Below are positions 41,172 through 57,813 of a DNA stretch of 64,000 nucleotides, piece by piece. The stretch lies in IMG/VR virus record IMGVR_UViG_3300037047_000246; one strand, given 5' to 3'. The translations under genes were made by a program, and so were the position numbers. The DNA comes from a virus (taxonomy: Duplodnaviria > Caudoviricetes). Each line of letters starts with the position of its first letter. Positions within the stretch are counted from its first letter, which is position 1. A model generated the notes under the pieces. The model had not been told where the DNA came from and made no database searches. It saw only the letters and a list, made by a program, of their open reading frames with translations.

Positions 41172-41235
41172 TTTGAAGCCGACCTTCGAGCGCAACTGGA
41201 GGTCGGGCCGGCTCGCGCGTACCGAGTGCAGGAGA
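41172..41235 (+). promoter_or_regulatory. 64-bp promoter cassette, copy 2
   Basis: 63/64 identical to 38375-38438. Confidence 0.75.
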
Positions 41236-41241
41236 TGACGC

Positions 41242-41619
41242 ATGGCGAAGAGAAAGACCCCTGAGCAGATTGTCGCCGAAGTGCATGAGCACAATCCGGA
41301 CGGGCTCGACATCGGCGTGCCGGTCGACTACGCGCCGTCCGACGGCGAGGTGGACAACATCGTCTATCTGGTGTGCAAATACGCCGCGAACTGGCCCATG
41401 CGCGGCGCGGACTTGGCCATCTGCAAGATGATGGCCGGCGAGATGCGAGGGCGCGAGGGCATTGAGCAGCTCGTGCGCGTGACGTGCGAGTACGTCTGGG
41501 ACCATATCTGCGGCGAGCCCAAGAAGCCGACGGCCAAAGACTTTTTCAAGCACATGAAGCCTCTTCTCGAGGAGTGGTATAGCAAAACCTCGGCGGACGA
41601 CAGGAGCAAAACGTCATGA
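41242..41619 (+). CDS. hypothetical protein
   Basis: AGGAG SD; N-terminus resembles 42100 ORF (AEVHE). Confidence 0.8.
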   Translation: MAKRKTPEQIVAEVHEHNPDGLDIGVPVDYAPSDGEVDNIVYLVCKYAANWPMRGADLAICKMMAGEMRGREGIEQLVRVTCEYVWDHICGEPKKPTAKDFFKHMKPLLEEWYSKTSADDRSKTS

Positions 41620-41687
41620 CCCGTGCTCGACCTGTGGCGCGAGGTGATCGCCAGAGATCTCGGAGCCTTGAGTTGAAGGAGGATGGA

Positions 41688-41807
41688 ATGAAGGCACTGC
41701 TGGCGAAGTATGGGATGACTCCGGAGCAAGTATACGAAACCGGTGTGTTTTGTGCGTTGGATCTGTGTGCAAGACTCATAATCTTGCAGCCACGACGCAG
41801 ATCGTAG
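41688..41807 (+). pseudogene. 5' remnant of DUF4116-like family gene
   Basis: MKALLAKYGMTPEQVYETGVFCALDLC. Confidence 0.65.
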
Positions 41808-41846
41808 CCCGGCTGACGTATCGCCCGCCGGAAGGAGCAAGAAGTC

Positions 41847-42077
41847 ATGATTCAGATCACCACCATCACGCGCGGCTACTTGACTCACGCCGACCGCAAG
41901 CGCGCCATCAAGCACCTCCGTCGCCGCGGCTATGATCACTTCGTCGAGTACCGGGACACGGCCGCGAAGTACGCGCTGTGCTACGGCAAGTACATCCGGC
42001 TCGAGCGGATGCAATGCCAGGACCTGCTCGGGCTGGCCGCCGGGCCGGTCCAGCTTCCCCTGGCAGGAGTTCGGTGA
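41847..42077 (+). CDS. small hypothetical
   Basis: AAGGAG SD. Confidence 0.6.
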   Translation: MIQITTITRGYLTHADRKRAIKHLRRRGYDHFVEYRDTAAKYALCYGKYIRLERMQCQDLLGLAAGPVQLPLAGVR

Positions 42078-42099
42078 TGTCCGGCGGGAGGGACGACTG

Positions 42100-42462
42100 A
42101 TGACAGACGAAGACAAACTGATTGCCGAAGTGCACGAGGAAGAGATCAAGAAGATCTTTCTGTTCGTCCGCGGTCCGCTGGACAATGCCATATCTTGGGC
42201 TGAGCTCTGGACTCAGCGGCAGGCTGAGGACTACGTCAAGCACGACCTGGCGAAAGCCGGCGTTCTAGGGAAGCCTTTCGAATCGTACAGGGTGGAGCGC
42301 CACCGGGAAGAGAGCGAGGTCTCCATCTTGATCTGGGGCGAAGACAGTCCGAGCGTCCAGCTCGACGACTACGGAGACAAGAAAGGCCTGCTCGTAAAGC
42401 TGGATGGCAAAGAAGTCTTCAGCAATCTTCGACCCATCGAAGATGATGAGGAGGTCGAATGA
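42100..42462 (+). CDS. hypothetical protein
   Basis: GGAGG SD. Confidence 0.75.
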   Translation: MTDEDKLIAEVHEEEIKKIFLFVRGPLDNAISWAELWTQRQAEDYVKHDLAKAGVLGKPFESYRVERHREESEVSILIWGEDSPSVQLDDYGDKKGLLVKLDGKEVFSNLRPIEDDEEVE

Positions 42463-42902
42463 AGACCGTGCTCACCATCGGCGGGTTCATCGCGGCGGCG
42501 GTCTTGGCTTGCATGGCTCTGGTCTTGGTGGGGGCCTTGAACCTGGTGCTCAACGGCTACCACTCGGAGTGCGGCATCTGGGAGAACGCGGTGCCGTTCG
42601 CTTGCAACCCCGGCAAGAAGCCTGAGGGGAAAGCCAACGTCGCCCGCCCTGCCCCGCCCGCCAAGGCCTCCTTGAAGGCGTCCGCCGCGCCGCAAAGGCC
42701 GGCCGGCCGCCTCGCGCCGCAGAAAGCAGCCGCAGTTTCAAAGCCCTCAAACAATCCGTACACGGGCCGGCGAGAGCCTTGGGGCTGCGGCCCGCTTCAA
42801 GCCGAGCCTTACCGGGTGCAGTGCGTCAACGGGATCTGCTACCACGACCCTGGATTTCGCGCAAACTGCGGCCTGGCGCACGACTGGAGGGACGGGCAAT
42901 GA
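42459..42902 (+). CDS. secreted or membrane-anchored Cys/Pro/Ala-rich protein
   Basis: hydrophobic N-terminus, Cys pairs. Confidence 0.7.
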   Translation: MKTVLTIGGFIAAAVLACMALVLVGALNLVLNGYHSECGIWENAVPFACNPGKKPEGKANVARPAPPAKASLKASAAPQRPAGRLAPQKAAAVSKPSNNPYTGRREPWGCGPLQAEPYRVQCVNGICYHDPGFRANCGLAHDWRDGQ

Positions 42903-43505
42903 AGACTCGGCAAGAGTTGCTGAACTTGATCCAGCAGTCGTCCGACGACCTGCTCAAAGCGATGTCGGATGCCGTTCAGCTACATAGGCATAATGTCAAC
43001 AGTCAGCTGCAGCAAGAGCAAAAAATATAAGAAGCCCGCAATCGCATCGCGAAAGACCGTGCGGGCTTCAAGCGGCTTCTGCTGCGCTCGAAGCTGCAGG
43101 TGGCCCGGGTCAAGGGCTATGAGCTGCGCAAGTGGAATCTGCGTTTGATCGACGCCAGCCCGGTCGCCCAAGTCCCGGTCGTGCACGAGATCACGCTCTG
43201 CTCGGGCGACTACAGCGACTACAAGCTCGAGGAGCTGCTGCGAATTGCGGTGGCCAAAGAATACCAGGTGCCATGGTTTATGGGTAGTAACGGGCAAAAG
43301 ACTCGAAGTTGCCCGAAGCATGCATCCGGACGTCTGGTCCAAGGCGATGAAGCGGCTGCGCCGCAAGGCCGCTTGGATGACCGCCATGGACGCGGCCCGA
43401 TGCACGGCCAACCCGGCCGCACAGCACATGTCCAAAGACAAGCTGCTGGAGCTGGTCGGCCGCGCGTACGACAACGTGGTCCTGAAAGCAGTGCAGGATG
43501 TCTGA
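42899..43505 (+). pseudogene. tagged gene (..NVVLKAVQDV) with in-frame TAA at 43028 and frameshift near 43280
   Basis: three ORF-track pieces join into one reading frame. Confidence 0.7.
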
Positions 43506-43866
43506 GCGCCTCAGGCCGTCCAGACGCCAGCTGGCGCAGGAGCTTGAAATGAGCGTCGAGATTCTGGAGTTCATGTTGGGTCTGGACCACTTCAGGCTGC
43601 GCTGGCGCAATCCGCTGCACGGCCCGGAGCGCAGCGAAGTCTACCGGTTCAGGCTCACTCCGGGCCGCAAGCAGCTGTCTGTGGCCACGACCGGATTCCC
43701 TTCGTTTGCGCCTCCGCCCGAGCTGCGCCAAGCGCTGGAAAAAGCCGGACACTGGACGGCGATCCGAGACCAGCTGATTCGCCAGGAGCTGGATGCCCTG
43801 GCCGCGCAATTCGGCGAGACGGTGCTGGCGCAGATTATGAAGTCAAGACGCGGCAGGCGCACTTGA
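43498..43866 (+). CDS. hypothetical protein
   Basis: coupled start. Confidence 0.65.
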   Translation: MSERLRPSRRQLAQELEMSVEILEFMLGLDHFRLRWRNPLHGPERSEVYRFRLTPGRKQLSVATTGFPSFAPPPELRQALEKAGHWTAIRDQLIRQELDALAAQFGETVLAQIMKSRRGRRT

Positions 43867-44129
43867 CAGCAAGGGCAGTGTTTGATCTTTCATTTGCGGC
43901 AACCTGCATGAGCAACATTCACGTGCGCGTCGCCGCTAGGGCGATTCAAGCAGCTCGATTCGAAGTCGATGGCCAGCCGTTCGACGAGCTTTATCTGGCT
44001 GCCCAAGAGGCGGAGTTTGCCCACTCGGACGACGGACAGCCGCACCAAGTGCTGGCCGTCGTGGACGACGAGCACGGCATGTTTTCGGCTGGAGAAGTGG
44101 TCTACACGTCCAAAGGCGCGCCGGAGTAG
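43863..44129 (+). CDS. small hypothetical
   Basis: coupled TTG start. Confidence 0.55.
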   Translation: MTARAVFDLSFAATCMSNIHVRVAARAIQAARFEVDGQPFDELYLAAQEAEFAHSDDGQPHQVLAVVDDEHGMFSAGEVVYTSKGAPE

Positions 44130-44187
44130 CCGCGCAGGCTTGCATGCTTGGCGCGCAGGTGCGCTGTAAAGTCAGGGAGGTGACAAC

Positions 44188-44340
44188 ATGCACGCCTGCG
44201 GAAACCCTTTGCACGACGTTCCCCTGTACATCGTCATGGCGCTGCCGTTCTTGGCGCCCCTGCTGGTGTGGCTGAAGATGAAGTTCGGCCGCCGCTGCGA
44301 ATGCGGACACGACCACGCGCAAGACCACGAGCATACCTGA
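44188..44340 (+). CDS. 50-aa membrane peptide with His-rich tail
   Basis: GGAGGTGACAACATG; MHACGNPLHDVPLYIVMALPFLAPLLVWL..HDHAQDHEH. Confidence 0.65.
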   Translation: MHACGNPLHDVPLYIVMALPFLAPLLVWLKMKFGRRCECGHDHAQDHEHT

Positions 44341-44353
44341 CTTCGTCTGCGCG

Positions 44354-44406
44354 TCGAAGGGCCGGAGGAGATGCGGCGCGGCGGCGCGTACCTGTGCCGA
44401 GAGGTG
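44354..44406 (+). promoter_or_regulatory. bipartite promoter-like element
   Basis: TCGAAG-N27-CGTACC...GAGGTG. Confidence 0.65.
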
Positions 44407-44410
44407 CCGC

Positions 44411-44689
44411 ATGCTTCGAGATCGCAAAAATTTGAAGGACCTGGAGTTTGCAGCTGTGCTGCAGTTCGGCGTTCAGGCGGCGCGCTTGCGGTGCACTTCG
44501 GCTGAGCAAAACAGTCTGGGGTTTGTCAATCTCGACAAATCTGGCAATTCGACGCATGAGCAGTTGTCCATATCGTTCATGTCGTCCCGCGAAGTCGGGT
44601 TCGACCGGGTCATGTGCGGACTGTTGCACGCTGCTTACGGCGAGCAGTTCACTGGCTACAGGCATGACTACTGGATGCAATGCGGCTAG
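44411..44689 (+). CDS. small hypothetical
   Basis: SD and promoter motif. Confidence 0.65.
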   Translation: MLRDRKNLKDLEFAAVLQFGVQAARLRCTSAEQNSLGFVNLDKSGNSTHEQLSISFMSSREVGFDRVMCGLLHAAYGEQFTGYRHDYWMQCG

Positions 44690-44787
44690 CCACCATCTGC
44701 CTGAAGCTGGCGGCGTTCCTGGACATGATTGAAGTGGACGCACTTTGAGAGGTCATAAGAACAACGAGTAGGCTGAGGAGAAGCGTC

Positions 44788-45036
44788 ATGGACCCGAACG
44801 CAGCACGGATGAGGCAAGCGCAGAAGCAATTGGCTGCAGACTGGAACAAGAAACACCGAGTGGGTACGCCAGTGCGATACTGGCTCTCTGACAAACAAGT
44901 CGCGGCCGACGGCGAATCGGTCACAGGGACCGGGTCCGCAGTGCTGGGAGGCCGGGCAGGCGTGTTCGTGAAGGGTGTGGCGCATTTTGTGCCGCTGGAA
45001 ATGCTCGAGCCGATAGAGCCTGAGCAAAAGAGCTGA
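44788..45036 (+). CDS. small SH3-like phage protein
   Basis: WN..H.VGTPVRY..LGG.AGVFV.G. Confidence 0.65.
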   Translation: MDPNAARMRQAQKQLAADWNKKHRVGTPVRYWLSDKQVAADGESVTGTGSAVLGGRAGVFVKGVAHFVPLEMLEPIEPEQKS

Positions 45037-45038
45037 TT

Positions 45039-45311
45039 ATGAACCAGTTCAAGTTCAAGTTCAAGCCCGAGCGCGACGCCAAGGGCAACGCCGTCTTTGA
45101 TCCGCACCGCCCGTGGTGCTGCTGCTGGTCAGCAGCAGGCTTCTGCGGCCGACCAGCCAGGTTCTTGTGGTGCAACTTGGCGCGCCCCTCGCTGCAGGTG
45201 GGAGGAGGTGTGATGGCGCTGTGCAATCAGCACAACTGGAAGGCAGGTTACGACCAGTGGCGCCGAGTGACGGCCGACGAGCTGGACGTGCTGCTGGTGC
45301 ATGAGGTCTGA
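45039..45311 (+). CDS. small Cys/His putative Zn-binding protein, tag (..ELDVLLVHEV)
   Basis: CCW..CGRPARF..LCNQH. Confidence 0.75.
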   Translation: MNQFKFKFKPERDAKGNAVFDPHRPWCCCWSAAGFCGRPARFLWCNLARPSLQVGGGVMALCNQHNWKAGYDQWRRVTADELDVLLVHEV

Positions 45312-45360
45312 AGCCGGGCGAAGGCCGAGCCCGCTCGCGCGTACCGAGGGGTGGAGGAAC
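45308..45360 (+). promoter_or_regulatory. bipartite promoter-like element
   Basis: CTGAAG-N26-CGTACCG...GGAGG. Confidence 0.7.
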
Positions 45361-45366
45361 CTGGCG

Positions 45367-45558
45367 ATGCCCGAAGATCTCAACTACATCTGCGTGGACC
45401 GGTGCGACTGCTGCGGCTGCAGGCGAGTGGGCACGATGCTGCACCACTTGGGAACGCCGGTGCTGTTCCTGTGCGCCTCTTCCGAGTGCGGCGGCCGGGC
45501 AGTGTTCGAGGCGACAGCCCGGAGAGACATCGACCGGTGGCTCCAGGAGGCGGCCTGA
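45367..45558 (+). CDS. small Cys-rich protein
   Basis: CDCCGC; SD. Confidence 0.7.
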   Translation: MPEDLNYICVDRCDCCGCRRVGTMLHHLGTPVLFLCASSECGGRAVFEATARRDIDRWLQEAA

Positions 45559-45605
45559 TGCAAGCTGGCGTTTTGGACGGTTTCACTCTTGCTGGAGGTG
45601 ATTGC

Positions 45606-45833
45606 ATGGCTCCGAAGTTCGAGCACGATTGCGACGAAGGCTGCCGGTTCCTGGGGCATCTGGCAGGCGTGGACCACTGGGTGCACGCCGAGAGCGATCC
45701 GGCCGGCTGCGAGCTCATCCAGCGCCGGAGCGACCAGCCGGCCGACTACTCCGCCTGGCCTCTGCAGGACGTCCCTTTGCTGCCCGCGCCCGCGCGCCAG
45801 CGCTGGGCGCTCACCCTGGCCTTGCTGGGCTGA
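45606..45833 (+). CDS. small phage protein (PKFEHDCDEGCRFLG)
   Basis: GGAGGTGA SD. Confidence 0.7.
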   Translation: MAPKFEHDCDEGCRFLGHLAGVDHWVHAESDPAGCELIQRRSDQPADYSAWPLQDVPLLPAPARQRWALTLALLG

Positions 45834-45917
45834 GGTCCGCGTAGAGCTTTTGGAGCCCGCCCTGCTGCTCGGGGCGGGCCTTGGAATCGCAACCTTTCTG
45901 CTGTGGAGGTGACGGAC

Positions 45918-46280
45918 ATGTCGAATCCGAGTCTTACCAAGAAGATTGCCGGCGATCTGGCGAACAAGTACGGAGTGCCGATCGAGGCCGTGCTGCACGC
46001 GATGACGGCTGGACGTGGCTTGGCAATCGAGGAGTTGCGCGAAGGTCAACGACTGGCCGAATTCAGCGATCCGCAGCTGGCTTGCGCCGTACTGGCCGCT
46101 GTGCCGCGGGTGCGGCTGGTGGCTGGTCTTCGAGGCCTGGAGCTGCGGCCCGAGCGGCTGCTGGACGACCAGGGCATGGCCGAGCTGCAGTCGCTGGTGG
46201 CCATAGCTGAGCGCGCGGCTCGAGCCATGATGCCTCCCGAGGCAGAAGGCGCTCCGAGCGCGTACCAGGAGGGGCCTTAG
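45918..46280 (+). CDS. hypothetical protein
   Basis: GGAGGTGA SD. Confidence 0.75.
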   Translation: MSNPSLTKKIAGDLANKYGVPIEAVLHAMTAGRGLAIEELREGQRLAEFSDPQLACAVLAAVPRVRLVAGLRGLELRPERLLDDQGMAELQSLVAIAERAARAMMPPEAEGAPSAYQEGP

Positions 46281-46328
46281 CCGCAAGTGCCGGCAGTTTT
46301 AAATATGGCACAGATGTGAGCAAAATCT

Positions 46329-46730
46329 ATGTCAAATATTCGGCAAATGCGTTTGGGCACTGGAAGCCGGCTGAACTGCGCGCCGAAAGGCCGCAGCGCG
46401 GCTCTCGACAAATTCGACCGAGACTGGAAGGCGCAGCTGTACGGCAGAACAGACGCGCTGTGGCAGCTGCGCTGCAGGCAGGACGTCCTTGTGGCTCGCC
46501 TGCGCGACGCGCTGCGGCAGCTTGACCTGGAGGTAAAGATGAAGACGTGGAAAGTGTGCATGGTGGATGAGTCTGGTTGCCCGACGTCTCAAAAGCTGCA
46601 AGCATCAAGCCGGGACCAGGCGTGCGCCCTGGTGCTCGAGGGGCTGCGGCAGCAGGGCCTGCAAGCGGCAGTGCAGGTGCTGTGGGCCGAAGAAGTGCTG
46701 CCCGAGGACAGTTCGGACACTGACGTTTGA
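46329..46730 (+). CDS. hypothetical (possibly two fused genes)
   Basis: internal GGAGG-ATG at MKTWKV. Confidence 0.55.
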   Translation: MSNIRQMRLGTGSRLNCAPKGRSAALDKFDRDWKAQLYGRTDALWQLRCRQDVLVARLRDALRQLDLEVKMKTWKVCMVDESGCPTSQKLQASSRDQACALVLEGLRQQGLQAAVQVLWAEEVLPEDSSDTDV

Positions 46731-46748
46731 ACCTGAAAGGAAGGCGAC

Positions 46749-47066
46749 ATGCTGAAGCCAGGTCAAAGAGTGTCGCACGACGGCCGAGGACTAGGCCGAG
46801 TGCTGGCAATCCGCCCGCTGCAGCCGAGCTGCGCCTGCCAGCTGGGCCGAGCCCTCGACTCCGGAGAGCCTGGCTTCGGCGCGCTGGCCTGCGCAGCCGT
46901 CTACGGGCCGGACAGGTACCCATACCTCGTTCGGTTCGATTGCGGCTACGAAGACGTGTACGCGCAGTCCGACCTGACCGAGGTCGCGGACTGCGCCGTC
47001 CTGCCCCGGGAAGGGCCTTCGGAGCCCGCCATCGAACAAGGTGGGGCTCGAGGTCGTCCGACCTAG
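46749..47066 (+). CDS. hypothetical, SH3-like
   Basis: MLKPGQRVSH..YPYLVRFDCG. Confidence 0.65.
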   Translation: MLKPGQRVSHDGRGLGRVLAIRPLQPSCACQLGRALDSGEPGFGALACAAVYGPDRYPYLVRFDCGYEDVYAQSDLTEVADCAVLPREGPSEPAIEQGGARGRPT

Positions 47067-47361
47067 GCCAAGGCGCAGGGAAGGCCAAGCTCGCTCAAGC
47101 GGCAGGCCAGTCCAGTCCAGGGGGCAGGACTGGGGCAGGTTTCCAAACCCCATGGCATATGCTCGCCAAAGGTATGTACCCTATTCGGCAAAGGAGCAGG
47201 GATTCGGTTCGAACCATGCCGTACCTTTGAACACCCTACCCTACTCCCTTTGAAGATGCGCGGCAGGAGTTCTGCCTTAGGGGCAGTATGCCAGACCAGG
47301 AGCCAGCAGCCCGACATAGTGCCTTGGGATAGTCTGCAAGTGTGTGGCATGGATAGAGCCA

Positions 47362-47958
47362 CTACTGCACATGCCTTGCGCCGGGATTATCTATAGGCAC
47401 CCAAGGCGCGCGGGGCTCGGTCCAAGGGTATGTGCCCGTTGGCCTGGGGCGCCTATCTCCGTCCAGACCTACCCGTGTCCAGTGGTCGCGAATGCTGCGG
47501 CATACTTGCAAGAATACTGGCACATCTGCCAAGCGCCACTGCTGCGCAGTTTTGAAACCCATCTCGCCCCCTCCGTCGCGAGAAGAGCAGTTGCGAACGG
47601 CCAGCGCCTGGAAATCTACCGAGACCCCTGCCAGATGCTCGAAGAGTCTGCCGGTATACTTCCAAACCCTGCTCTGGTGCCCTTCAGGCATAGCTGCCAG
47701 CAGCTCGGACCATCCCTGGCAGGCAGCAAGGCACACCCCCAGCTGCAGTTCGAGGGGCAGGCGCCAGTACTGCTCTGCGTAGGGCCTGCCTCGAAGCAAG
47801 TCCTCGGCTACGTTTCGGACCAGAGTTCGGTCCGCTTTGAGCAGGATCTGGCAGGGGATCCAGCGGTCCCTGCACCGGATCAGGTGCACAGAAGCTGAGG
47901 GCTTGTAGCGCCTGTAGTTCGACAGCGCTCTGTCTAGCACGGCGGATTTGCAAATCAT
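47362..47958 (-). CDS. hypothetical of atypical composition
   Basis: longest ORF in a lower-GC zone. Confidence 0.5.
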   Translation of the reverse strand: MICKSAVLDRALSNYRRYKPSASVHLIRCRDRWIPCQILLKADRTLVRNVAEDLLRGRPYAEQYWRLPLELQLGVCLAACQGWSELLAAMPEGHQSRVWKYTGRLFEHLAGVSVDFQALAVRNCSSRDGGGEMGFKTAQQWRLADVPVFLQVCRSIRDHWTRVGLDGDRRPRPTGTYPWTEPRAPWVPIDNPGARHVQ

Positions 47959-48090
47959 GGAGGTCTGGGTGTCCTTTCAGGTAGGCCGGTGGGCACTTCT
48001 CGCCAAACGTCGGATACGACTTTGGGCGGACGCCCGCCAGGGGACGTCCGCCCAAAGAGAGGGGAGGGGCCTTGCGGCCCCTCCCGCGGG

Positions 48091-48567
48091 TCACTTCACC
48101 GAGAACATCTGGGCCGTGACGGCCAGTTCGGGATTCTCGGCCATGGCCCAGGTCCTGAGGCAGACGCTCGTCTGCTTGGCGTAGCGGCCGCCGATGTGCT
48201 GCAAGAAGGCCTCATGGCCCGTGAACTTCTGGCCATCGCAGCGGTACTCCAGGGCCTCGTCAGGGGAGGCGCCCAGGATGAGGGATTGGATCAGCTTGCT
48301 GGCCGAGGCGGCGTGCGAGCTCATCAGGCCACGCTTGTTCTTCTCGATGGTCTCCCGCTTGGCCTGCTCCGCGTCGGTCTGCAGGTGGAACATCGTGACC
48401 GCCACCAGGGTGCGCAGGTCCGGGTCGTTCTCCAGCCGGGCACGCACCGCCTTTTCCCCCACGAAGGGGTAGACCCTGGCGTCGCGAGAGACCACGGGCG
48501 GGACCGCCTCGGCGAGGCGCTGCAGGCAGGTGTCCAGAGAGGTGAGCTCGGTGATGTTGATCGTCAT
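48091..48567 (-). CDS. hypothetical protein
   Basis: AAGGAG SD; GC3-rich codons. Confidence 0.8.
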   Translation of the reverse strand: MTINITELTSLDTCLQRLAEAVPPVVSRDARVYPFVGEKAVRARLENDPDLRTLVAVTMFHLQTDAEQAKRETIEKNKRGLMSSHAASASKLIQSLILGASPDEALEYRCDGQKFTGHEAFLQHIGGRYAKQTSVCLRTWAMAENPELAVTAQMFSVK

Positions 48568-48765
48568 TGGCTGGCTCCTTTGGGGCTCGCGGCCCCGTTG
48601 CAGTTGCGCGGTCGCCCGCGCCTTCGTTACTCGCGGCCAGGCGCGATCGCCGAGCGGCCGCCGGTCCCGCGCGATCGTCGCGCCGTCCCGCACCACCTGA
48701 TACGCGCGCAGCCGCACAGCCGCCGGGAATCCGTAAATCGGACAGGGCGGCATGGCCCCAGGGCG

Positions 48766-48815
48766 GCGTACCCATCCCGGATTTACGGGGCCCCGTAAAT
48801 CCGGGATGGGTACGC
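48766..48815. repeat. 50-bp perfect loop-less palindrome
   Basis: GCGTACCCATCCCGGATTTACGGGG|CCCCGTAAATCCGGGATGGGTACGC. Confidence 0.97.
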
Positions 48816-49029
48816 ATATACGTATAGGGAGGGATTATACGGTATGTATATGTAGTATAATATCCTACCCAGTAAATATGGGAGGGCGGCGAGTATCTCT
48901 TTTGGGGTGGGGAACCGGATGCACACTTTGTAAATCCGGGGACCCGCGGAAATAGGGTCGTTCGATATGCGCGACGACGATCCCGCGAAGAAGTTCAAAT
49001 AGACTGACAGTTTGTTCAGTTATATCCAG

Positions 49030-49074
49030 TCCGGATCAGTCATATCCGGATCAGTCATATCCGGCTCAGTCATA
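49030..49074. repeat. 3 x 15-bp tandem repeat
   Basis: TCCGGATCAGTCATA x2 + TCCGGCTCAGTCATA. Confidence 0.9.
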
Positions 49075-49109
49075 CCCAATCATGATAGCATGCCGGCTCC
49101 GGAAGGCTG

Positions 49110-49400
49110 TCATGACTGCGACGGCGAACCGGCGGACGGTGTTTCTGGCGTTTTCGCGGGCTCGACGTCGCCTGCGTTCGCATCTTCCGCGACGATGCCG
49201 ATCACCTCGGGCTGGCCGACCATGCGGACGAACGACGGCAGCCGGCACATGTTCTCTTCCACCAGCCGCTTGGCCTCGCGGCCCGCTTGGTCGAACAGCT
49301 GGTGGAGCGTGCAGTCTTTGCCCCACCGGCCGGCCGTCACTTCGACCGTCAGCCGCACCCGTGCGGTGCCGACAATCTTCTTATCATCATTCAGTTTCAT
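49110..49400 (-). CDS. hypothetical phage protein
   Basis: MKLNDDKKIVGTARVRLTVEV..W..DCT. Confidence 0.7.
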   Translation of the reverse strand: MKLNDDKKIVGTARVRLTVEVTAGRWGKDCTLHQLFDQAGREAKRLVEENMCRLPSFVRMVGQPEVIGIVAEDANAGDVEPAKTPETPSAGSPSQS

Positions 49401-49476
49401 GATCCGCCTTTCTGGTGGAGCGCCACCAGTCGAGTGCCGTTTGGCAGGCTGTAGAGCCGTCGGCTTTTTCCCTTCA

Positions 49477-49869
49477 TCATCGCCTTCCTTCGGGTAGCTG
49501 CGGCGGTGGGGGAGGGCCGTGCGGCATCTTCTCCCGCCAGGCCAGCCAGCGCAGGTATTCCTTGTCGTGCCCACCTTCGTTCTTCAGGTAGTCCTCGGCC
49601 GAGAACCAGTTGATATGTCGGGCCAGCCCGTGCGGATCTTCGTCGCCGTCGTAGATGACCTGCGCGACGGACCGCATCCAGCGCGCGATCGAGTACACCA
49701 TCGCCCTGTCGGGCCCGTGCAGGCAGCTGTATTCGATGGTGATTTTGCGCCCGCGCCGCTTTTCCGGAGGGCCCGCCCACTGGGACCATCTCCAGCTTTG
49801 CCCTGTCGCGCGAATCATCGCGTCGCGCAGCTTCGCAGACCGCGCCGCCACTTCCAAACAAGAGCTCAT
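49477..49869 (-). CDS. hypothetical protein
   Basis: ORF track; plausible codon use. Confidence 0.65.
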   Translation of the reverse strand: MSSCLEVAARSAKLRDAMIRATGQSWRWSQWAGPPEKRRGRKITIEYSCLHGPDRAMVYSIARWMRSVAQVIYDGDEDPHGLARHINWFSAEDYLKNEGGHDKEYLRWLAWREKMPHGPPPPPQLPEGRR

Positions 49870-49974
49870 GCCTTGGTTTACACCAGGGATCCCCAGATTT
49901 TCGCTCGCTGTGAGGCTTGTGATTGAGAGGGGCATGGACAAGCTGCAGCGCATCGCGGGTGGCCGAATGACCCG

Positions 49975-50490
49975 TCAGCTCTCCATCGTCTCCCACACCA
50001 GCCATTCGGCTGCTATCTCTTCCGCTCGCTCGCCTCGGATCTCCGCGAAAACTTCTTTTGAAGACGGCCACAGCGATCCTGGCAGGCTTTCGGGTCCCCA
50101 GCCGAGGTCCTCGGGTGGGACGGCGCACAGCCCGGCGCGCAGGACGATCTCGGCCCCGATGCGCGGCCCGCCCAGCGACAGCACCCCCTCGGACGCGACC
50201 AGCGCCCGAAAGTCGCACGGGCCGCAGAATTCCGCCAGCCGCGCGAGCTTTTCGGCCAGCTGCCGCCTGACGGACGAGCGCAGCTCTTGCAGCATCTGGT
50301 CGATGGACTGGAACCGGCAGTTCGGATCGAACTTGGTCTTGGACGCGCCGGATCGCACTTCGATCAGGTCCAGCATGAACCGGCGCCCAAAGGCGAGCGG
50401 AATGCGCGGCCCTGCAGGCCCAAGGGCCGCGATGGCGTCGTCCACTGTCGGCAGCGCCCCGCCCAAGTTCTCCGGCAAAACCCTCAGCAT
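49975..50490 (-). CDS. hypothetical, tag (..EWLVWETMES)
   Basis: tag; 3' end homologous to 54503-54600. Confidence 0.75.
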   Translation of the reverse strand: MLRVLPENLGGALPTVDDAIAALGPAGPRIPLAFGRRFMLDLIEVRSGASKTKFDPNCRFQSIDQMLQELRSSVRRQLAEKLARLAEFCGPCDFRALVASEGVLSLGGPRIGAEIVLRAGLCAVPPEDLGWGPESLPGSLWPSSKEVFAEIRGERAEEIAAEWLVWETMES

Positions 50491-50971
50491 CGCTCACGGC
50501 CCGCGCAAGATTTTCTTTCAACGCGGCGATTCAACCGCGCAGGCAGACGCATTTTACAGCTTTTGACTGCGCATTTCTGCGTCGTAGGCAGGCCTATGCG
50601 CCTACGACGAGCTCGGCTGGAACGACTGGACGCCCGCCTCCGATTTCGGCGACGTCGAGCGCAAAATCCGCGAGATGTGCGGGAACGGCCGGCTCATCGG
50701 GAACGCCGACGCGTACGCCGACGAGGCGCGCGAAAACTGGGAGGACTACAAGCACATCTGGGAGAAGCACTACCTGAAGGGCAACGCCGACGAGCCGTTC
50801 ACTCCCGAGGAGAGCGCAGAGGTTGACCAACTCGTGAATCAGCAGCGGCAGCAGCGGCCCTAGCTCTCCATCACGCACCACACGGCGCGTTCCTTCGGCC
50901 CCAGCACTCGCACCCCGCGACAATCCCGCGTTCAACGAGACGTTCGCAAAGGAGCTGGCATGACCGGCCTG

Positions 50972-51673
50972 CTACGAGTCGCCGTCGCCCAAAGTGCCCC
51001 GAGGCTCTTCGGGGCAATGCGCCTGCAGCCGCGGCGGCGCCTTTTGGGCTTTGTCGGCCAGAGACCGCATTCCCTCGGCCATCGCGCACGCAGAGACGAA
51101 AGCGTCGATCTCCGTCTTCGCAGCATTCGCCATTCTCTGGGCGGCTTGTCGAAATTGGTCCAGCATGAACGGCATGTCTTCTTTCACTGACCTGATCATC
51201 CTGTCGAGCCTCTTCAAAATTTTTTCTCTGTCATGCTTGCCCAAACTCTTCTTTGACTCGAACGCCGCCGCAATCTCGCCGCGGGCCGCCTCCATCTCTG
51301 CAGCCAGCGATTTCGCGTCGCTTTCGAACCCTGCCTGCACGAGCTGCTGCTCGGTGGGCTCGTCCGGGCATGGCTCCACCGGCTGGCCTCCGAGGCGCAC
51401 GACGGTGCACGGCACGCCTTGCCCTATGTTCATGGTCGTGATGAGCTCGGCGAACTGCGCCGCCGACAAGTTTGCTTCGACTATGTCGCCGTCTTGCCCA
51501 AAAAACCCGTCCTCACCCAGCCTGTGCGTCCGCTCAGCCCTGCCCAGCCGCAGGCGCACAAAGTTTTGGTGATCTGTCAGCGGCGATCCGAACAGCTTTC
51601 CGGGATTCCCGGAGATTCGGGAGAACGACACCATTGCGTGCGACCTGTGCTGCGCCTTGAATTTTTCGTCCAT
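50972..51673 (-). CDS. conserved phage hypothetical protein
   Basis: MVSFSRISG..LFGS..SAAQFAELITTMNIGQGVPCT, a pattern I recall from phage hypothetical proteins. Confidence 0.8.
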   Translation of the reverse strand: MDEKFKAQHRSHAMVSFSRISGNPGKLFGSPLTDHQNFVRLRLGRAERTHRLGEDGFFGQDGDIVEANLSAAQFAELITTMNIGQGVPCTVVRLGGQPVEPCPDEPTEQQLVQAGFESDAKSLAAEMEAARGEIAAAFESKKSLGKHDREKILKRLDRMIRSVKEDMPFMLDQFRQAAQRMANAAKTEIDAFVSACAMAEGMRSLADKAQKAPPRLQAHCPEEPRGTLGDGDS

Positions 51674-51827
51674 GCCCGCATGTTACAGGCGAAGCCTTTT
51701 TGTAGAGAGGGCCTTTCTCCTGGGGCTTCGCTTTCGGGTCCCTGCTGCATGCCTCCCGAAAGCGAAGCCCGCTCCGCCTGTAGTTTGCTTGCCGGCATTT
51801 CGCTCCGGCGGCAAGGACTGTTTTGAC

Positions 51828-52121
51828 ATGATCGTTCGCAAACCCGGGCAGCCGAAGGCAGATCTTTCCGAGGAGACCACGGCCGAAGTCTTGAAGAAAG
51901 CCAAAGCCCTCATCCGCACCGACTGGGGAGGGCAGAACCCCGATCAGGCCATCTTCCGCAAGCTTCTGGCCGCTGGGATGGAAGCCTCCCCTCAGCTCGT
52001 GGCTGCTTGTTTGGCCATCGCCGAGCAGCAAGTGGCCGGGTGCCGCAGACGCACTTCCAGGCGCTTGAACGAAGCCATCCGCCGCCTGGAGACCGGCCCG
52101 GCCGCCAAAAAGGCGCCCTGA
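51828..52121 (+). CDS. hypothetical protein
   Basis: AAGGA SD; start uncertain. Confidence 0.55.
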   Translation: MIVRKPGQPKADLSEETTAEVLKKAKALIRTDWGGQNPDQAIFRKLLAAGMEASPQLVAACLAIAEQQVAGCRRRTSRRLNEAIRRLETGPAAKKAP

Positions 52122-52171
52122 CCCCGCCCGGACGCGCCGTAAATCTGCGCCGCAAGCGAGTACGCTCTGGC

Positions 52172-54208
52172 ATGAAACTTCATGCTCTGCTTGTGTGCCT
52201 GTCGGCAATCGTTGCCTGCGGAGGGCCGCCTGAAACTGCTGCGGAGAGCCTCGCTGGCGCCTCCGGCGAGTCGGGAGCTTCCGGCGCGGCCGGCGCGCCT
52301 GTCTCCGCTGGCGCTGCCGGCGAATCCAGCTTCGCCGGATCCGCTGGCGCCTCCGGCGAAGCTGGATCGTCGGGCGCAACTGGCGCATCTGGAGCTGCCG
52401 GAGAATCTGGCGCATCTGGAGCTGCCGGAGAATCTGGCGCATCTGGCGCATCGGGCGCGGCCGGAGAATCTGGGTCATCTGGCGCCGCTGGGGCGCCTGC
52501 TGGAGGCGCAGCCGGCGCTGGAGGAGCGGCGACCGAGTGCGCGCCGGGAGCCAAAAACTGCGTGGGGCTGACGCTGCTCGAATGCAACCCGATGGGCTTT
52601 TGGATCCAAAAGCAGCAGTGCCAATATGTCTGCCAATCCGGCAGCTGCGCAGGAGAATGCGTGCCCGGCGCCAGCCAATGTGCCGGGCTTGTGCCGCAGC
52701 ACTGCGACCAATCTGCCGCTTGGCAGCCGTCTCCCGCCTGCCCCTTTGTGTGCCAAAGCGGCGCCTGCGCCGGCGTCTGCGTCCCGGGAGCCCAAGAGTG
52801 CGCAGGCGCTGCGCCTCGCACATGCTCTGCGGCCGGCCAATGGCAGGTAGCCGCGGACTGCCCCTTTGTGTGCCAAAGCGGCGCCTGCGCCGGCGTCTGC
52901 GCTCCAGGCGACTCCAGGTGCTTCGGCGCAGACGTCCAGTCCTGCCATTCGGACGGGCAGTGGCACGTCGAGCAGACTTGCCAGTTCGTCTGCGTCGGCG
53001 GCGCGTGCGCCGGCGCCTGCGTCCCCGGGCAGATGCGATGCTCCGGATCGGCGCTGCAGCAGTGCTCCGCACTCGGCCAGTGGGTCGACGCTGTCGTTTG
53101 CCCGTACGCGTGCCACGAGCTGTCGTGCGCTGGCGTCTGCGTCCCTGGCCAGAAGCAGTGCTCCGGCGCAACTGTCCAGCAGTGCAGCCTGGCCGGGCAG
53201 TGGGCGGACCTGCAAGCCTGCCCGTCCGGCCCCGGCGCCGAGGCCGCGTGCTCGGAAGGCGCCTGCTCGCTTGCGTGCCTGGCTGGCCGGGGCGACTGCA
53301 ACGGCGACATCTCTGACGGCTGCGAGGCCAGCTTGACTGCAAACGACCCCGCCAACTGCGGCGCGTGTGGCCGCGCGTGCGCCAGCGCTGCAGTGTGCAT
53401 CATCGGCAGGTGCGCTCAAACGCTGGCCGTGGAGAGCAGCTCTGTGCTGGACATCAAGATCGATGCGGCGTTCGTCTATTATTCGGTGGAAGGCAAAGTC
53501 ATGAAAGTCGCCAAGAGCGGCGGCACCCCCGTTGCGCTGGCTGCAGGCACGACGGTGACAAATCTGGCTGTCAACAGCTCGCACGTGTTCTGGGTGGACG
53601 GCGGCAACTACGTGCGCAGGGTGAGCAAGAGCGGCGGCGCAACAGACGTGTTGTCCAGCGCAGCCAACATGGCTCAGCAGGTGGTGGCGGACTCGTCTTA
53701 CGTCTACTTTTCCAGCTACGGCTTGATCGCAATCCGCAAAATCCCTGTCGGCGGTGGCGCCGCGACGACGGTGTGCGCGGGGTCCCCGAAGCGCATGGCC
53801 TTGGACTCGGTGCAGGGCGCCGTGCTGTGGACCAATTTCGACTCCGTTCGCGGATGCTCGACGTCAGCGCCGCACTCGTGGGTGGTGGCGTCAGGGCAAA
53901 ACGGCCCGTCAGGCATAGCGATCGACAAAGCGTCAGCCGCCTACTGGACCAACGCGGGCCCTGGCCTGAAGGCCGTGATGGGTCCTGGCGCGGTCGCGAT
54001 TGCTGTCGATGCCGCCTTTGGGCCGATCGCGGTCGACGACAGCCGCGCGTATTGGTACAACTATGTCGAAAGCAAGATCAAGCGCGTATCCAAATATGGC
54101 GGCGCGGTGGAAACTGTGGCATCGTCCGTTGTGGCAAGTGCGATTGCTGTCGACGACGAGTCTGTCTACCACGCGGCGCACAACATCTTGGCAAAGACAG
54201 ACAAATGA
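52172..54208 (+). CDS. myxobacterial-type Cys-rich surface lipoprotein with C-terminal beta-propeller
   Basis: signal peptide with IVA-C16 lipobox, G/A/S/E linker, six ~40-aa 6-Cys repeats, DCNGDISDGCE..NCGACG, propeller repeats (IAVDD..VYW). Confidence 0.88.
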   Translation: MKLHALLVCLSAIVACGGPPETAAESLAGASGESGASGAAGAPVSAGAAGESSFAGSAGASGEAGSSGATGASGAAGESGASGAAGESGASGASGAAGESGSSGAAGAPAGGAAGAGGAATECAPGAKNCVGLTLLECNPMGFWIQKQQCQYVCQSGSCAGECVPGASQCAGLVPQHCDQSAAWQPSPACPFVCQSGACAGVCVPGAQECAGAAPRTCSAAGQWQVAADCPFVCQSGACAGVCAPGDSRCFGADVQSCHSDGQWHVEQTCQFVCVGGACAGACVPGQMRCSGSALQQCSALGQWVDAVVCPYACHELSCAGVCVPGQKQCSGATVQQCSLAGQWADLQACPSGPGAEAACSEGACSLACLAGRGDCNGDISDGCEASLTANDPANCGACGRACASAAVCIIGRCAQTLAVESSSVLDIKIDAAFVYYSVEGKVMKVAKSGGTPVALAAGTTVTNLAVNSSHVFWVDGGNYVRRVSKSGGATDVLSSAANMAQQVVADSSYVYFSSYGLIAIRKIPVGGGAATTVCAGSPKRMALDSVQGAVLWTNFDSVRGCSTSAPHSWVVASGQNGPSGIAIDKASAAYWTNAGPGLKAVMGPGAVAIAVDAAFGPIAVDDSRAYWYNYVESKIKRVSKYGGAVETVASSVVASAIAVDDESVYHAAHNILAKTDK

Positions 54209-54262
54209 GTCCCGAGGCTTTTTGGCGGCTGGCAGTGAAGCTTTGATTGCGCAAGCTCCTGC

Positions 54263-54499
54263 ATGGACAAGTTGCAGCGCATCGCCGCTCGCGTGGCTGG
54301 ATCGGAGCAAGACCAAGCTGACAGGGACGCTGAGGCAGAGGTGCTGGACGCAATGGCCGCAGGAGACAGCTGCGTCCAGAGCGTTTATCTGCAGCTCAAG
54401 CGCAGCGGGCTTTGGGAAGCGCAGCGCGGCTTGCCTTGGTTCCTGGCGTGGCTGGAGAGCCGAGGCTTTTCGCTGGCAGGCTCCGAGATCCGCCTATAG
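54263..54499 (+). CDS. small protein MDKLQRIAARVAG..
   Basis: no SD; AAGCTTTGATT upstream. Confidence 0.65.
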   Translation: MDKLQRIAARVAGSEQDQADRDAEAEVLDAMAAGDSCVQSVYLQLKRSGLWEAQRGLPWFLAWLESRGFSLAGSEIRL

Positions 54500-54502
54500 G
54501 CT

Positions 54503-54655
54503 TCAGCTCTCCATTATCTTCGCGACCAGCCATTCGACCGATATCTCTGCAACCCGCCCGCCTCTGGCGATCTCCGCGAAAATCTCGCCGAAGTGCCGGA
54601 CAAAGCGCGGCGCTGCCTTTTCTGGAACTGGAGGCGCGCGCGCAGCGCTTCCCAT
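54503..54655 (-). pseudogene. 3' remnant of paralog of 49975-50490, tag (..EWLVAKIMES)
   Basis: IFAEIARGGRVAEISVEWLVAKIMES*. Confidence 0.7.
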
Positions 54656-54673
54656 TGTATGATTCGGGTGACC

Positions 54674-55372
54674 ATGTGCAACACATGCAAATTTCTCGAG
54701 GACGAATCCTGCGACGATGCGTCTCCCAACGACTGGTGCCCGAGATACGAGCCAGGCTCGTCAGCCGACAACGCCCGCCTTGCCGCCGAGAAAGCTGGGC
54801 TGGATGAGAAGCACAAGCAGCTCATGGACGGGTACGAGAGCTGCTACGACGCAGCCTCGCTGCAGGGAGATGCGCGCCGCCCCGAAGCGCTGCGGAACTG
54901 GATCGATGCCACCGTAGCTGAGCGCGACCAGCTCGATCGCGAGAACGCGGAGATCGGCGCCGACCGCGACATGATGCGCGGGGCGCAGAAGGAGGCAGAT
55001 CGGCTCCGGCACGGCGTGGCGATCAAAGGCGACTTCGTGTGCCCGAACGGCCTGCGCGCGACCGTAGCCGAGCAGGAGTTGGCAGAGGCGCGCATGTCAA
55101 TCGCCGCGCTGACCGGGGCGATTGCAGACGGCTCGCTGGAGCGCGACAAGCTGGCAGCCGAGCGAGACGAGGCGCGGGAGGCGCTGAAGCAGTGCGCGAA
55201 GGTGCGGCTCGAATACCAGCAGCAGCGCGACGAGTATCGGGCAGTGCTGGAAGACTTATCCTGCGACGGGTGCGAATACGGCGACAACTGCCCTCCGTTT
55301 GGCACCAATCACGGACAGTGTATGCCGTGCAAATGCAGGGAAGCCCTTGACCGGACGAGGAGGGGAGGATGA
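54674..55372 (+). CDS. coiled-coil protein with terminal Cys clusters
   Basis: CNTC..WC; heptads; CDGC..C..CMPC. Confidence 0.75.
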   Translation: MCNTCKFLEDESCDDASPNDWCPRYEPGSSADNARLAAEKAGLDEKHKQLMDGYESCYDAASLQGDARRPEALRNWIDATVAERDQLDRENAEIGADRDMMRGAQKEADRLRHGVAIKGDFVCPNGLRATVAEQELAEARMSIAALTGAIADGSLERDKLAAERDEAREALKQCAKVRLEYQQQRDEYRAVLEDLSCDGCEYGDNCPPFGTNHGQCMPCKCREALDRTRRGG

Positions 55373-55431
55373 GCTGCGCGATGGCGCGAAGATGCGGCTG
55401 CCGCCGCAACGCGCAGGAGCCGCGAGGCGAT

Positions 55432-56103
55432 ATGAAAGACTTGTTGCAGAAGCATGGGCTGACTCCTGAAGAGGCGTTCAAATTAGGTTTGCGCTGCATA
55501 CTGGACCTATGCCCGGAGCAGGTGCAGTTCGAAGCAGTCCAACAAAATGGGTACTTGATACAGTTCATAAAGAATCCGTCCGAACAGGTGCAGCTCGCAG
55601 CAGTCCGGCAGAGCGGCTTCTCAATCCAGTCCATCGAGCAGCCGTCCGAGCAGGTGCAGCTCGAAGCAGTCAAAGAAAACAGGGACTCGATCCGGTTCAT
55701 CGAGCGACCGTACGAGCAAGTTCAGCTCGCAGCAATCAAACAAGATGGGTTTTTGATCCAGTTCCTCAATGACCCGTCCGAACAAGTGCAACTCGAAGCA
55801 ATCCGGCAGAACGGTGAGGCGATTCAATTCGTCAAGAATCCATCCGAACAAATACAGCTTGCAGCAGTTAGGCAGTATGGGCAATCAGTTAGATTCGTCA
55901 AGCGGCCGTCCGAGCAGGTGCAACTCGCAGCAGTCCGTGAGAACGGACTATCGATCCAGCACGTCAAGAACCCGTCCGAGCAAGTGCAGCTCGCAGCAGT
56001 CAGACAGTACGGAGACTCAATTCTGTTCATCAATGATCCGTCGCATGAAATATTGGAGAGATTATTGACGGACTTGGCGATCAGGAGCGTGCAGGACTCG
56101 TGA
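55432..56103 (+). CDS. DUF4116-like 24-aa repeat protein, tag (..DLAIRSVQDS)
   Basis: tandem PSEQVQLAAVRQ repeats; paralog of 2558-3160. Confidence 0.85.
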   Translation: MKDLLQKHGLTPEEAFKLGLRCILDLCPEQVQFEAVQQNGYLIQFIKNPSEQVQLAAVRQSGFSIQSIEQPSEQVQLEAVKENRDSIRFIERPYEQVQLAAIKQDGFLIQFLNDPSEQVQLEAIRQNGEAIQFVKNPSEQIQLAAVRQYGQSVRFVKRPSEQVQLAAVRENGLSIQHVKNPSEQVQLAAVRQYGDSILFINDPSHEILERLLTDLAIRSVQDS

Positions 56104-56157
56104 GGTAGCTGACGGCGCAGTGCCGAATGCCTCGGAGCGCCAAACAAATTGAAACTG

Positions 56158-56391
56158 ATGAGCAACCTGAAGCTGGAGCCAAAATGGGAGCGTTGGGAAC
56201 CGGGCGTGCATGTGTACGGCCGCCATGCCCCAGGCAGCCCGGATCCGTACGGCGTATCTGTTTGCCTCGGATCGGATGGCAGGTGGTGCGCGTACGTTAC
56301 CACAATCAAGTCTCCAGGTGATTCTCAACACAGGACTTTGCGCGAAGCAAAAATTGCCGCAGAGAAGGGATACCTGAAGAAGATCGCGTAG
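56158..56391 (+). CDS. small hypothetical
   Basis: ORF track. Confidence 0.55.
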   Translation: MSNLKLEPKWERWEPGVHVYGRHAPGSPDPYGVSVCLGSDGRWCAYVTTIKSPGDSQHRTLREAKIAAEKGYLKKIA

Positions 56392-56435
56392 AGCGTAAGT
56401 CATGACAGCGACTATTTCAACTATGGATTTGACGA

Positions 56436-57779: not shown

Positions 57780-57813
57780 GACCGGCGTAGGCTTTTGATT
57801 CGCGTTGTCGAGC

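Follow-up and report, generated by a model that had tools for sequence, protein, structure and literature searches.

What is a perfect 50-bp palindrome, with no loop at its center, doing in a non-coding gap of a large phage genome? The palindrome in question lies at positions 48766-48815 of a 64,000-nt stretch of viral DNA (Duplodnaviria; Caudoviricetes), which we call the window and which comes from the IMG/VR record IMGVR_UViG_3300037047_000246. A first-pass annotation, made from the letters of the window, had suggested a telomere-resolution site like those of linear phage-plasmids, or else a packaging site or the core of a replication origin. We find that the palindrome is real and non-random and that it sits at a conserved functional place. 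As to what it does, we tentatively favor, with a little less than even confidence, a promoter-proximal and dyad-symmetric control element of the minus-strand operon that starts at 48567 (a gene of 158 amino acids followed by one of 198 amino acids), rather than an end of the DNA.

The palindrome and its surroundings

The window corresponds to positions 265348-329347 of the record (G000 below), read on the minus strand. The record is 362,524 bp long, is 100% complete according to CheckV, and has a 29-bp overlap between its ends, the mark of a circular assembly. Its source samples are metagenomes of groundwater and coal beds from 2020. The gene calls are rough and self-trained. At 48766-48790 we find GCGTACCCATCCCGGATTTACGGGG, and this is followed, with a loop of 0 nt, by its reverse complement at 48791-48815 (25 + 25 nt, 100% complementary); both the coordinates and the sequence are exactly those first annotated. 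The palindrome had also been described as the only one of such size, and this holds for the entire record: it is the longest loopless palindrome in all 362,524 bp, and the runner-up has just 30 bp. Given the base composition, 5e-10 palindromes with arms of at least 25 nt would be expected by chance. The flanks of the palindrome are unlike each other, while the arms themselves are symmetric right up to the center. The single strand folds at -33.8 kcal/mol (z = -7.2).

The first-pass annotation had warned that the palindrome could be an artifact of assembly. Sequencing support comes from Logan contigs (k = 31) of the runs X1, X3, and X4, which belong to three studies. In X1, X3, and X4, a 7603-nt contig stops at 48795 and a 3624-nt contig starts at 48786, and both are 100% identical to the window. 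X1 also contains a 50-nt unitig that is identical to the palindrome. The sequence of each half of the palindrome is independently supported in this way, and at least three samples, from three studies, contain the identical palindrome. No contig runs across it from one flank to the other, and the join between the flanks comes only from the IMG/VR assembly. The breaks at 48795 and 48786 are exactly those that a perfect 50-bp palindrome makes in a de Bruijn graph with k = 31, since its 20 inner 31-mers pair up as reverse complements of each other. Repeats account for where each contig stops at its far end: a 51-bp repeat (41172-41222) for the left one and collagen-like tandem repeats (52380-52446) for the right one. 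(The 51-bp repeat is exact, links 38375-38425 and 41172-41222 within an array of small plus-strand genes, and breaks k = 31 contigs.)

The non-coding gap around the palindrome had been put at about 500 bp, and it measures 542 bp between our gene calls (48568-49109). The flanking genes, at 48091-48567 and 49110-49400, are both on the minus strand. Reading along the strand of the 158-residue gene, we encounter tandem repeats, an inverted repeat (ACTGAAC..GTCAGT), conserved boxes, an AT-rich element, the palindrome, a GC-rich leader, a ribosome-binding site, and the ATG (Table 1). The AT-rich, dyad-type element between the boxes and the palindrome reads ATACTACATATACATACCGTATAATCCCTCCCTATA on this strand. 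Relatives with a protein identity of 42-82% keep this architecture ahead of the homologous gene (we refer to these loci as L001 and so on), and the order and orientation of the genes around the gap are shared with relatives as well. The tandem repeats at this place differ among relatives; for example, L006 has three copies of a 49-bp unit and L049 has three copies of a 9-bp unit. None of the motifs in the gap recurs elsewhere in the genome, and a nhmmer profile of the core, which was built from nine related loci, has one match in the genome (E = 1e-52). When we compared 46000-52000 to plasmid and phage records at the DNA level, there was no match, and a search of 47500-50000 against Rfam at E ≤ 1 gave only rows at chance level (for example, a miRNA model on the hairpin).

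A collinear relative (G001; 376,674 bp) helps to delimit the conserved part. In the 22 kb that surround the site, nucleotide matches between G000 and G001 are limited to nine short ones (65-610 bp), every one of them on the gene side. These nine include the non-coding core (74.8% identity over 119 bp) and the 158-residue gene. No nucleotide match lies beyond the core on its right. The conserved non-coding locus is thus the border of a hypervariable region. We also note that 48924-59000 lacks nucleotide similarity to G001 and that it holds a gene with collagen repeats that resembles a tail fiber (52172-54208).

Versions of the palindrome in related phages

The motifs that we call M1 and M2 (Table 1) are the key to comparing the locus across relatives. 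M2 has the consensus CC(C)GGATTTACG. An M2-like motif follows a -10-like hexamer, which is TATAAT, TATACT, TATAAC, or TATACC depending on the locus, at a distance of 28 nt in the window, 28 nt in L019, 30 nt in L001, 29 nt in L022, and 27 nt in L049; in L011 the distance is 36 nt. L049 keeps this spacing even though its protein is only 42% identical. Because the distance from the hexamer to M2 is held in relatives, we take the promoter-side arm to be the ancestral and position-fixed part of the palindrome. As for the gene-side arm, its outer GGTACGC matches inverted copies of M1 in L008 and L012.

Several relatives have a palindrome of their own at the same place. In L019, which is from activated sludge and whose protein is 74% identical, there is a perfect loopless palindrome of 28 bp (CCGGATCTCCGCCC|GGGCGGAGATCCGG). 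L004 (75% identical) has a palindrome of the L019 type with two mismatched pairs, so that 12 of 14 are paired, and L006 (69% identical) has one of 14 bp, CACCCCATGGGGTG. L012 has TACCCA-G-TGGGTA at this place and a M2-like copy further downstream. More distant relatives have only short arms of the type GGATACC..GGTATCC, and in L001 and L009 such arms flank M2. In L008, L009, L011, and L022, the palindromes are shorter or there are none. At this locus, G001 has no palindrome that reaches 18 bp, and the longest one in that genome (32 bp) lies elsewhere, at 78,676.

If the palindrome of the window is aligned center to center with those of L019 and L004, then 5 of the 14 pairs have changed on both arms, including the three innermost pairs. 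In this alignment 95% of the cells are paired, and just 3 of 500 shuffles reach such pairing. Given that the palindrome is single-copy, that its position is conserved, and that it is symmetric to the center with changes on both arms in relatives, it looks like a cis-acting DNA element. This part of the original interpretation stands, while its more specific proposal, a telomere-resolution site as in phage N15, does not (see below). As to conservation in relatives, which had been suggested as a check, the place of the element and a graded series of palindromes are found in relatives, but the long palindrome is lacking in the collinear G001 and in most of the others.

A proposed promoter-proximal control element

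How might a control element of this kind arise and work? We propose that the ancestral state was a short inverted repeat, with M1 and an inverted M1 around M2, and that template switching during replication could have extended it into a perfect inverted duplication. The outcome would be two M2 sites that lie head to head, 8 bp apart. A dimeric DNA-binding regulator might use these as its operator, some 20-70 nt downstream of where transcription probably starts. Or else the 5' end of the leader RNA might fold into a highly stable stem-loop, which would control the expression or stability of this RNA.

Several observations support this reading: the gap lies between two minus-strand genes in an arrangement that relatives share, the spacing of M2 is fixed, the region is conserved, relatives have palindromes at the same place, the arms covary, the genome has an excess of perfect palindromes that fits a mutational process of "perfecting" (see below), and the leader is strand-asymmetric. 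The last of these deserves explanation. In distant relatives, the leader is rich in C and A on the strand of the gene, which is as expected for a transcribed leader rather than for a symmetric DNA site. As for the boxes upstream, we found no conserved RNA structure in them on either strand, so they are signals at the level of DNA, such as promoter or regulator sites. Between sense and antisense folding of the hairpin zone, the differences track base composition only. A scan for intrinsic terminators did not find any.

Two known systems can be compared with this reading. Promoter-early stem-loop (PeSL) cassettes are found in T4-type phages at the borders of hyperplastic regions, and they are present in multiple copies. 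Our locus resembles them in having a stem-loop after a promoter-like element where a conserved gene meets a hypervariable region, but its element and its boxes are single-copy. The other system is the control of replication in iteron plasmids such as pPS10, F, and P1, in which monomers of Rep bind the iterons and dimers of Rep bind an inverted repeat at the rep promoter. Here too, M2 (CCGGATTTAC) and M1 (GCGTAYC) are present as nearby direct copies and as a head-to-head pair that lies after a promoter-like element and before a conserved gene. On the other hand, we saw no Rep-like or winged-helix fold in the adjacent proteins, and the arms are far longer than those of known operators.

Several points weigh against a control element. 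At 50 bp, the palindrome is long for an operator. Symmetry is maintained at the three innermost pairs in two lineages whose sequences differ, and neither a RNA hairpin nor a typical operator needs this. A scan for a promoter with the sigma-70 consensus gave no match, so that both the start of transcription and its direction are putative. We cannot name a regulator either: the 158-residue protein did not match any DNA-binding fold, and among 53 members of its family (phrog_21015) that were scanned, just one had Pfam hits to helix-turn-helix domains, and these were weak. The direct repeats and the AT-rich stretch would fit an origin of replication as well. Finally, in three runs the sequencing depth changes by 1.8-2.05-fold at the palindrome, and a regulatory role gives no account of this step.

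We also considered a T7-type promoter on the plus strand (TATAGGGAGGG, which occurs once in the genome) and set it aside: PF00940 had no match, but its controls were silent too, so this does not show that the polymerase is absent. On the same strand, 48823-48855 reads GGGAGGG, then 10 nt, and then a mini-frame, ATG TAT ATG TAG. The arrangement GGAGGG-N9-10-ATGTATATGTAG is kept in L001 and L009. The mini-frame could be a side effect of having a conserved AT-rich dyad here, or it could be a tiny leader frame on the opposite strand.

Table 1. Features of the locus, from the upstream gene to the end of the presumed operon; positions are those of the window.
Feature	Position	Strand	Remarks
Upstream co-directional gene, 96 amino acids, phrog_15409	49110..49400	-	Not conserved in G001
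15-bp direct repeat, three copies, TCCGGATCAGTCATA	49030..49074	.	Unique in the genome
Conserved short inverted repeat, AACTGAAC-N5-GTCAGTC	49003..49022	-	Sometimes tandemly multiplied in relatives
Conserved box, GGGATCGTC..CGCGCATATCGAACGA	48958..48986	-	Conserved in relatives
Further direct copy of the M2 core, CCGGATTTAC	48930..48939	-	
Conserved box, TGCATCCGGTTCCCC	48909..48923	-	Top-conserved non-coding block across relatives
AT-rich, partly dyad-symmetric conserved element, ATACTACATATACATA..GTATAAT..CCCTCCCTATA	48816..48865	-	Single-copy in the genome
-10-like hexamer, TATAAT	48834-48839	-	28 nt before M2
Perfect loopless palindrome, 50 bp (25 + 25)	48766..48815	.	Center at 48790/48791, genome position 280557/280558
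Promoter-side arm, reads GCGTACCCATCCCGGATTTACGGGG on the strand of the gene	48791..48815	-	Homologous to the sequence at the same place in relatives
M1, GCGTACC	48809-48815	-	In the promoter-side arm
M2, CCCGGATTTACG	48794-48805	-	In the promoter-side arm
Gene-side arm, mirror copy of M2 and M1	48766..48790	-	Lineage-specific apart from the outer GGTACGC
Downstream M2-like copy, TCCGATTTACGGA	48730..48742	-	
GC-rich leader, two units of GCG(A)GTAWC-N6-8-GCGGG(C)(G)AC about 70 nt apart	48611..48705	-	Copy number varies in relatives
Conserved ribosome-binding site, AAGGAGCC (48573-48580), and start ATG (48565-48567)	48565..48580	-	
Conserved gene, 158 amino acids, phrog_21015	48091..48567	-	AlphaFold2 (AF2) model with a predicted local distance difference test (pLDDT) score of 89.7; no match to a known fold
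Second gene of the presumed operon, 198 amino acids	47362..47958	-	A gene of 178-182 amino acids follows the homologue in relatives

Could the locus be an origin of replication?

The best of the alternatives to a control element, although we consider it unlikely, is that the palindrome is a replication origin or part of one. The locus would then combine iteron-like repeats, an AT-rich stretch for unwinding, and a palindrome that can form a cruciform, beside a possible initiator gene, and the palindrome would be extruded or bound at initiation. Several features of the locus suit this idea. The threefold 15-bp repeat is not found anywhere else in the genome, and relatives have other tandem repeats in its place; the conserved AT-rich element adjoins the palindrome; the locus is conserved and present just once; copies of M1 and M2 are found in either orientation; and the single strand folds as stably as described above. 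Also, the step in sequencing depth in three runs could mark the start of unidirectional replication.

Nevertheless, the AT-rich stretch is not among the 15 windows of 60 bp with the lowest GC content in the genome, and the palindrome has a GC-rich center (GGGGCCCC), which is unfavorable for starting the extrusion of a cruciform. The fixed distance between the hexamer and M2, the strand-asymmetric leader, and the strong ribosome-binding site look more like a transcription unit. We searched the flanking proteins for an initiator, for a Rep-like or winged-helix fold, and for Pfam families, and none were found.

GC skew had been proposed as a check on the palindrome, and its extremes lie elsewhere. 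In G000, the cumulative skew reaches its lowest value at 300,759 and peaks at 49,285, and there is no signal at the palindrome (280.56 kb). The minimum in G001, at 234,340, is at the position homologous to the minimum in G000, and in both genomes it is 20-25 kb away from the locus. Locally, the skew follows the direction of the genes, and in phages GC skew is known to follow transcription. The minimum corresponds to about 28589 in the window and is beside a gene for a MoxR-like AAA protein (28659-29765), in the stretch that is the best-conserved nucleotide segment between G000 and G001 (79%). We did not find any obvious origin-like repeats in this region (about 28.6-30.7 kb of the window).

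A palindrome without a function of its own?

Next in plausibility, and also unlikely in our view, is that the palindrome has no function of its own. A recent template-switch mutation (the "perfecting" of a quasi-palindrome) could have occurred within a short inverted repeat that is functional, and the product would simply be tolerated. An inverted duplication by template switching gives symmetry to the center automatically, which a RNA hairpin does not require. Moreover, the genome has far more perfect loopless palindromes than expected: there are 7 with arms of at least 10 nt, versus 0.43 expected, and 4 with arms of at least 13 nt, versus 0.007 expected. Of the 12 longest, 8 are inside coding regions. 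This excess, mostly within genes, suggests that template-switch mutations are frequent in this lineage. (Other examples in G000 are at 248964-248993, 153705-153730, and 8833-8858 of the genome, and G001 has its own set elsewhere.) That G001 has sporadic palindromes, such as the one of 32 bp at 78,676, but none here is also consistent with a mutational origin, as is the variation in length at this site among relatives, from 0 to 50 bp. The version in L004 is decayed (12 of 14 pairs) relative to that in L019.

What makes us doubt this explanation is that at least three lineages keep a loopless palindrome that is centered just after M2 (50 bp in the window, 28 bp in L019, and 14 bp in L006). We argue from this that dyad symmetry at this exact place is of some advantage. 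The presence of the identical palindrome in samples of three studies also speaks against it.

The perfecting of quasi-palindromes is described as intramolecular template switching (the Ripley model), with hotspots of quasipalindrome mutation in E. coli. The locus resembles those cases in that the perfect inverted repeat of the window has imperfect or short counterparts in relatives, in the symmetry to the center, and in the general excess of palindromes in the genome. It differs in that the described cases usually involve a few bases in a short hairpin, while here the arms have 25 bp, and in that at least two lineages keep differing perfect versions at the same place.

Sequencing depth and a possible genome end

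One hint that the palindrome might be an origin core or a packaging site is the change in sequencing depth. The contigs to the left (41193-48795) and to the right (48786-52409) have mean depths of 78.7 and 43.3 in X1, 147.1 and 71.9 in X3, and 49.6 and 27 in X4, for ratios of 1.82, 2.05, and 1.84; as these are means of contigs, they do not fix the position of the step. In the low-depth run X5 there is no step (4.2-4.7 on the left versus 5.0 on the right). The contigs of X5 end at 49011, and we do not read the lack of cover beyond that position as absence. The unitig of the palindrome in X1 has a depth of 71, which implies about 35x coverage by molecules that cross it, because each canonical k-mer is passed twice. 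This is near the right-hand depth.

The step fits three causes: a co-occurring strain that shares the left side only, the edge of a long terminal repeat that was collapsed in the circle, or the start of unidirectional replication. The end of the X5 contigs at 49011 and the hypervariability of the right side support the second strain.

Is the palindrome then at a genome end or a packaging site? It could be where a long direct terminal repeat, collapsed in the circular assembly, has its inner edge, or a site where terminase acts or ends are duplicated with hairpin-primed synthesis, as in T7. Such a role would explain the roughly two-fold step in X1, X3, and X4 and the crossing depth in X1, which matches that of the right side. 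The other ends of both contigs are already accounted for by repeats. In addition, the left side contains many small genes of unknown function, as do the terminal repeats of T5 and SPO1. But the step cannot be placed from contig means, it is absent from X5, and, given how variable the right side is, a strain that shares only the left side would look the same. Also, contigs from relatives frequently stop less than 1 kb upstream of the gene, but the stops are spread across tandem repeats, hairpins, and GC-rich units. We had considered that they mark a single physical end and rejected this, as they do not fall at one site; a region that is hostile to assembly fits better. Overall, we doubt that this is a genome end.

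T5 has control regions for injection stop and for its terminal repeats, and the concatemer junctions of T7 form a hairpin intermediate. Like those regions, ours is complex non-coding DNA with direct repeats, inverted repeats, and a palindrome, and it may adjoin a block in which the depth is two-fold. Unlike for those, what we have are mean depths of contigs, and one run lacks the step.

More broadly, the palindrome might be a physical site of DNA processing that does not involve any known protelomerase: the edge of a long terminal repeat, the start of unidirectional replication, or an end at which an unrecognized enzyme forms hairpins. We see this as similarly doubtful. If true, it would account for both the two-fold depth step and the symmetry at the center, and the closer relatives would have a shorter version of the device.

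Could it be a telomere-resolution site?

In N15, the circle is cut at the palindrome telRL and resealed as hairpin ends by the protelomerase TelN. The same process at our palindrome would require an enzyme that we do not recognize. The shape of the site is indeed similar to that of telRL/tos of N15 and to the sites of phiKO2 (with TelK), PY54, phiHAP-1, and VP882: a single dyad of 50-56 bp in a non-coding gap, with unlike flanks and with symmetry at its center. (The telRL site of N15 has 56 bp, of which 52 of 56 positions are symmetric.) The palindrome is loopless and unique in the genome, and its symmetry was kept as the sequence changed. Also, since a 31-mer is too short to span the 50 bp, we reason that an intact palindrome and fold-back hairpin ends would look alike in k = 31 contigs.

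What is missing is the machinery. We searched the complete genome for the catalytic domain of ResT/TelK (PF16684), with no hit, and for a homolog of the TelN protein from the N15 record, with no match at E ≤ 10. The tyrosine recombinase domain (PF00589) had no hit in the complete genome at E ≤ 1, while it was detected in 14 of 14 control genomes. Nor did the complete genome contain a serine recombinase, the ParB_N domain (PF02195; ParA was not searched), or members of the RuvC and endonuclease VII families. As a positive control, the OB domain of DNA ligase was found in the same genome at E = 1.6e-26. The first-pass annotation had proposed to look for a protelomerase or a tyrosine recombinase elsewhere in the genome, and with neither of them present, its telomere-resolution site lacks the defining feature of such a system.

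The arrangement of the locus is different as well. In the N15 record, telN is 165 bp from telRL and sopAB is adjacent. Our palindrome lies at a fixed distance after a promoter-like element and before a gene, and the long version is not kept at this locus in the collinear G001 or in most other relatives. Hairpin ends also give no reason why the two arms should differ in depth. So, although the palindrome has the shape of a target site, we reject a N15-type telomere system, of which the protelomerase, a ParB-type partition gene, and conservation in relatives are all lacking, and we think it very improbable that hairpin telomeres of any kind are formed here. This would have been the first huge phage with hairpin ends, and our searches of the literature did not find any paper that joins a jumbo phage with a protelomerase. 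One paper on huge phages (PMC7162821) tabulates hairpins of over 25 bp, and the portions of its text that we searched do not discuss their function.

Neighboring genes and other features

The 158-residue protein is highly conserved and is predicted to be helical with one beta hairpin. Its AF2 model has no match in the PDB or in the ESM atlas: the best Foldseek hit in the PDB has E = 0.59, the best hit from VIA wide has Z = 4.0, hits in the atlas have TM of at most 0.39, and ESM features reach at most 0.81. By profile search, the phrog_21015 family includes 123 clusters at 50% identity, and it has no named function. Searches with the 198-residue protein did not give any lead.

Upstream of the palindrome, a single-copy region of about 250 nt (48816-49074, minus strand) carries the boxes ACTGAAC-N5-GTCAGT, GGATCGTC..CGCGCATATTGAACGA, TGCATCCGGTTCCCC, and ATACTACATATACATA, and there are homologous parts in L001, L006, L008, L009, L011, L012, L019, L022, and L049. 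In the leader, a unit of about 70 nt (GGAGATCG..GCGTAAC..GCGGGGAC) is present once in L009 and twice in L010, which is otherwise nearly identical. In L012, two copies of the leader unit are inverted, which creates a perfect long-range inverted repeat of 19 bp.

Far from the palindrome, near a vWA-MoxR pair of genes, a 535-residue protein (26679-28286, minus strand) matches a zinc finger (DUF4379) and also has two matches that do not reach their Pfam thresholds, one to REase_MTES_1575 and one, which falls just short, to Mom-like proteins. We consider it a candidate DNA-modification or nuclease gene.

Implications

One lesson from this locus is practical. Perfect palindromes that are longer than k will break de Bruijn assemblies, so claims about whether such a palindrome is intact or forms hairpin ends need reads that span it.

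For the biology of these phages, the value of the finding is moderate. It defines a well-delimited, single-copy, and conserved control region in a lineage of uncultured phages with genomes of 360-380 kb. Searches for the regulator or the origin of these phages can begin from the clear motifs at this locus, and so can work on the widespread phrog_21015 family, which has a confident structural model but no known fold. And, in a genome with such a tendency overall, the locus cleanly illustrates how a short inverted repeat in nature grows into a long perfect palindrome.

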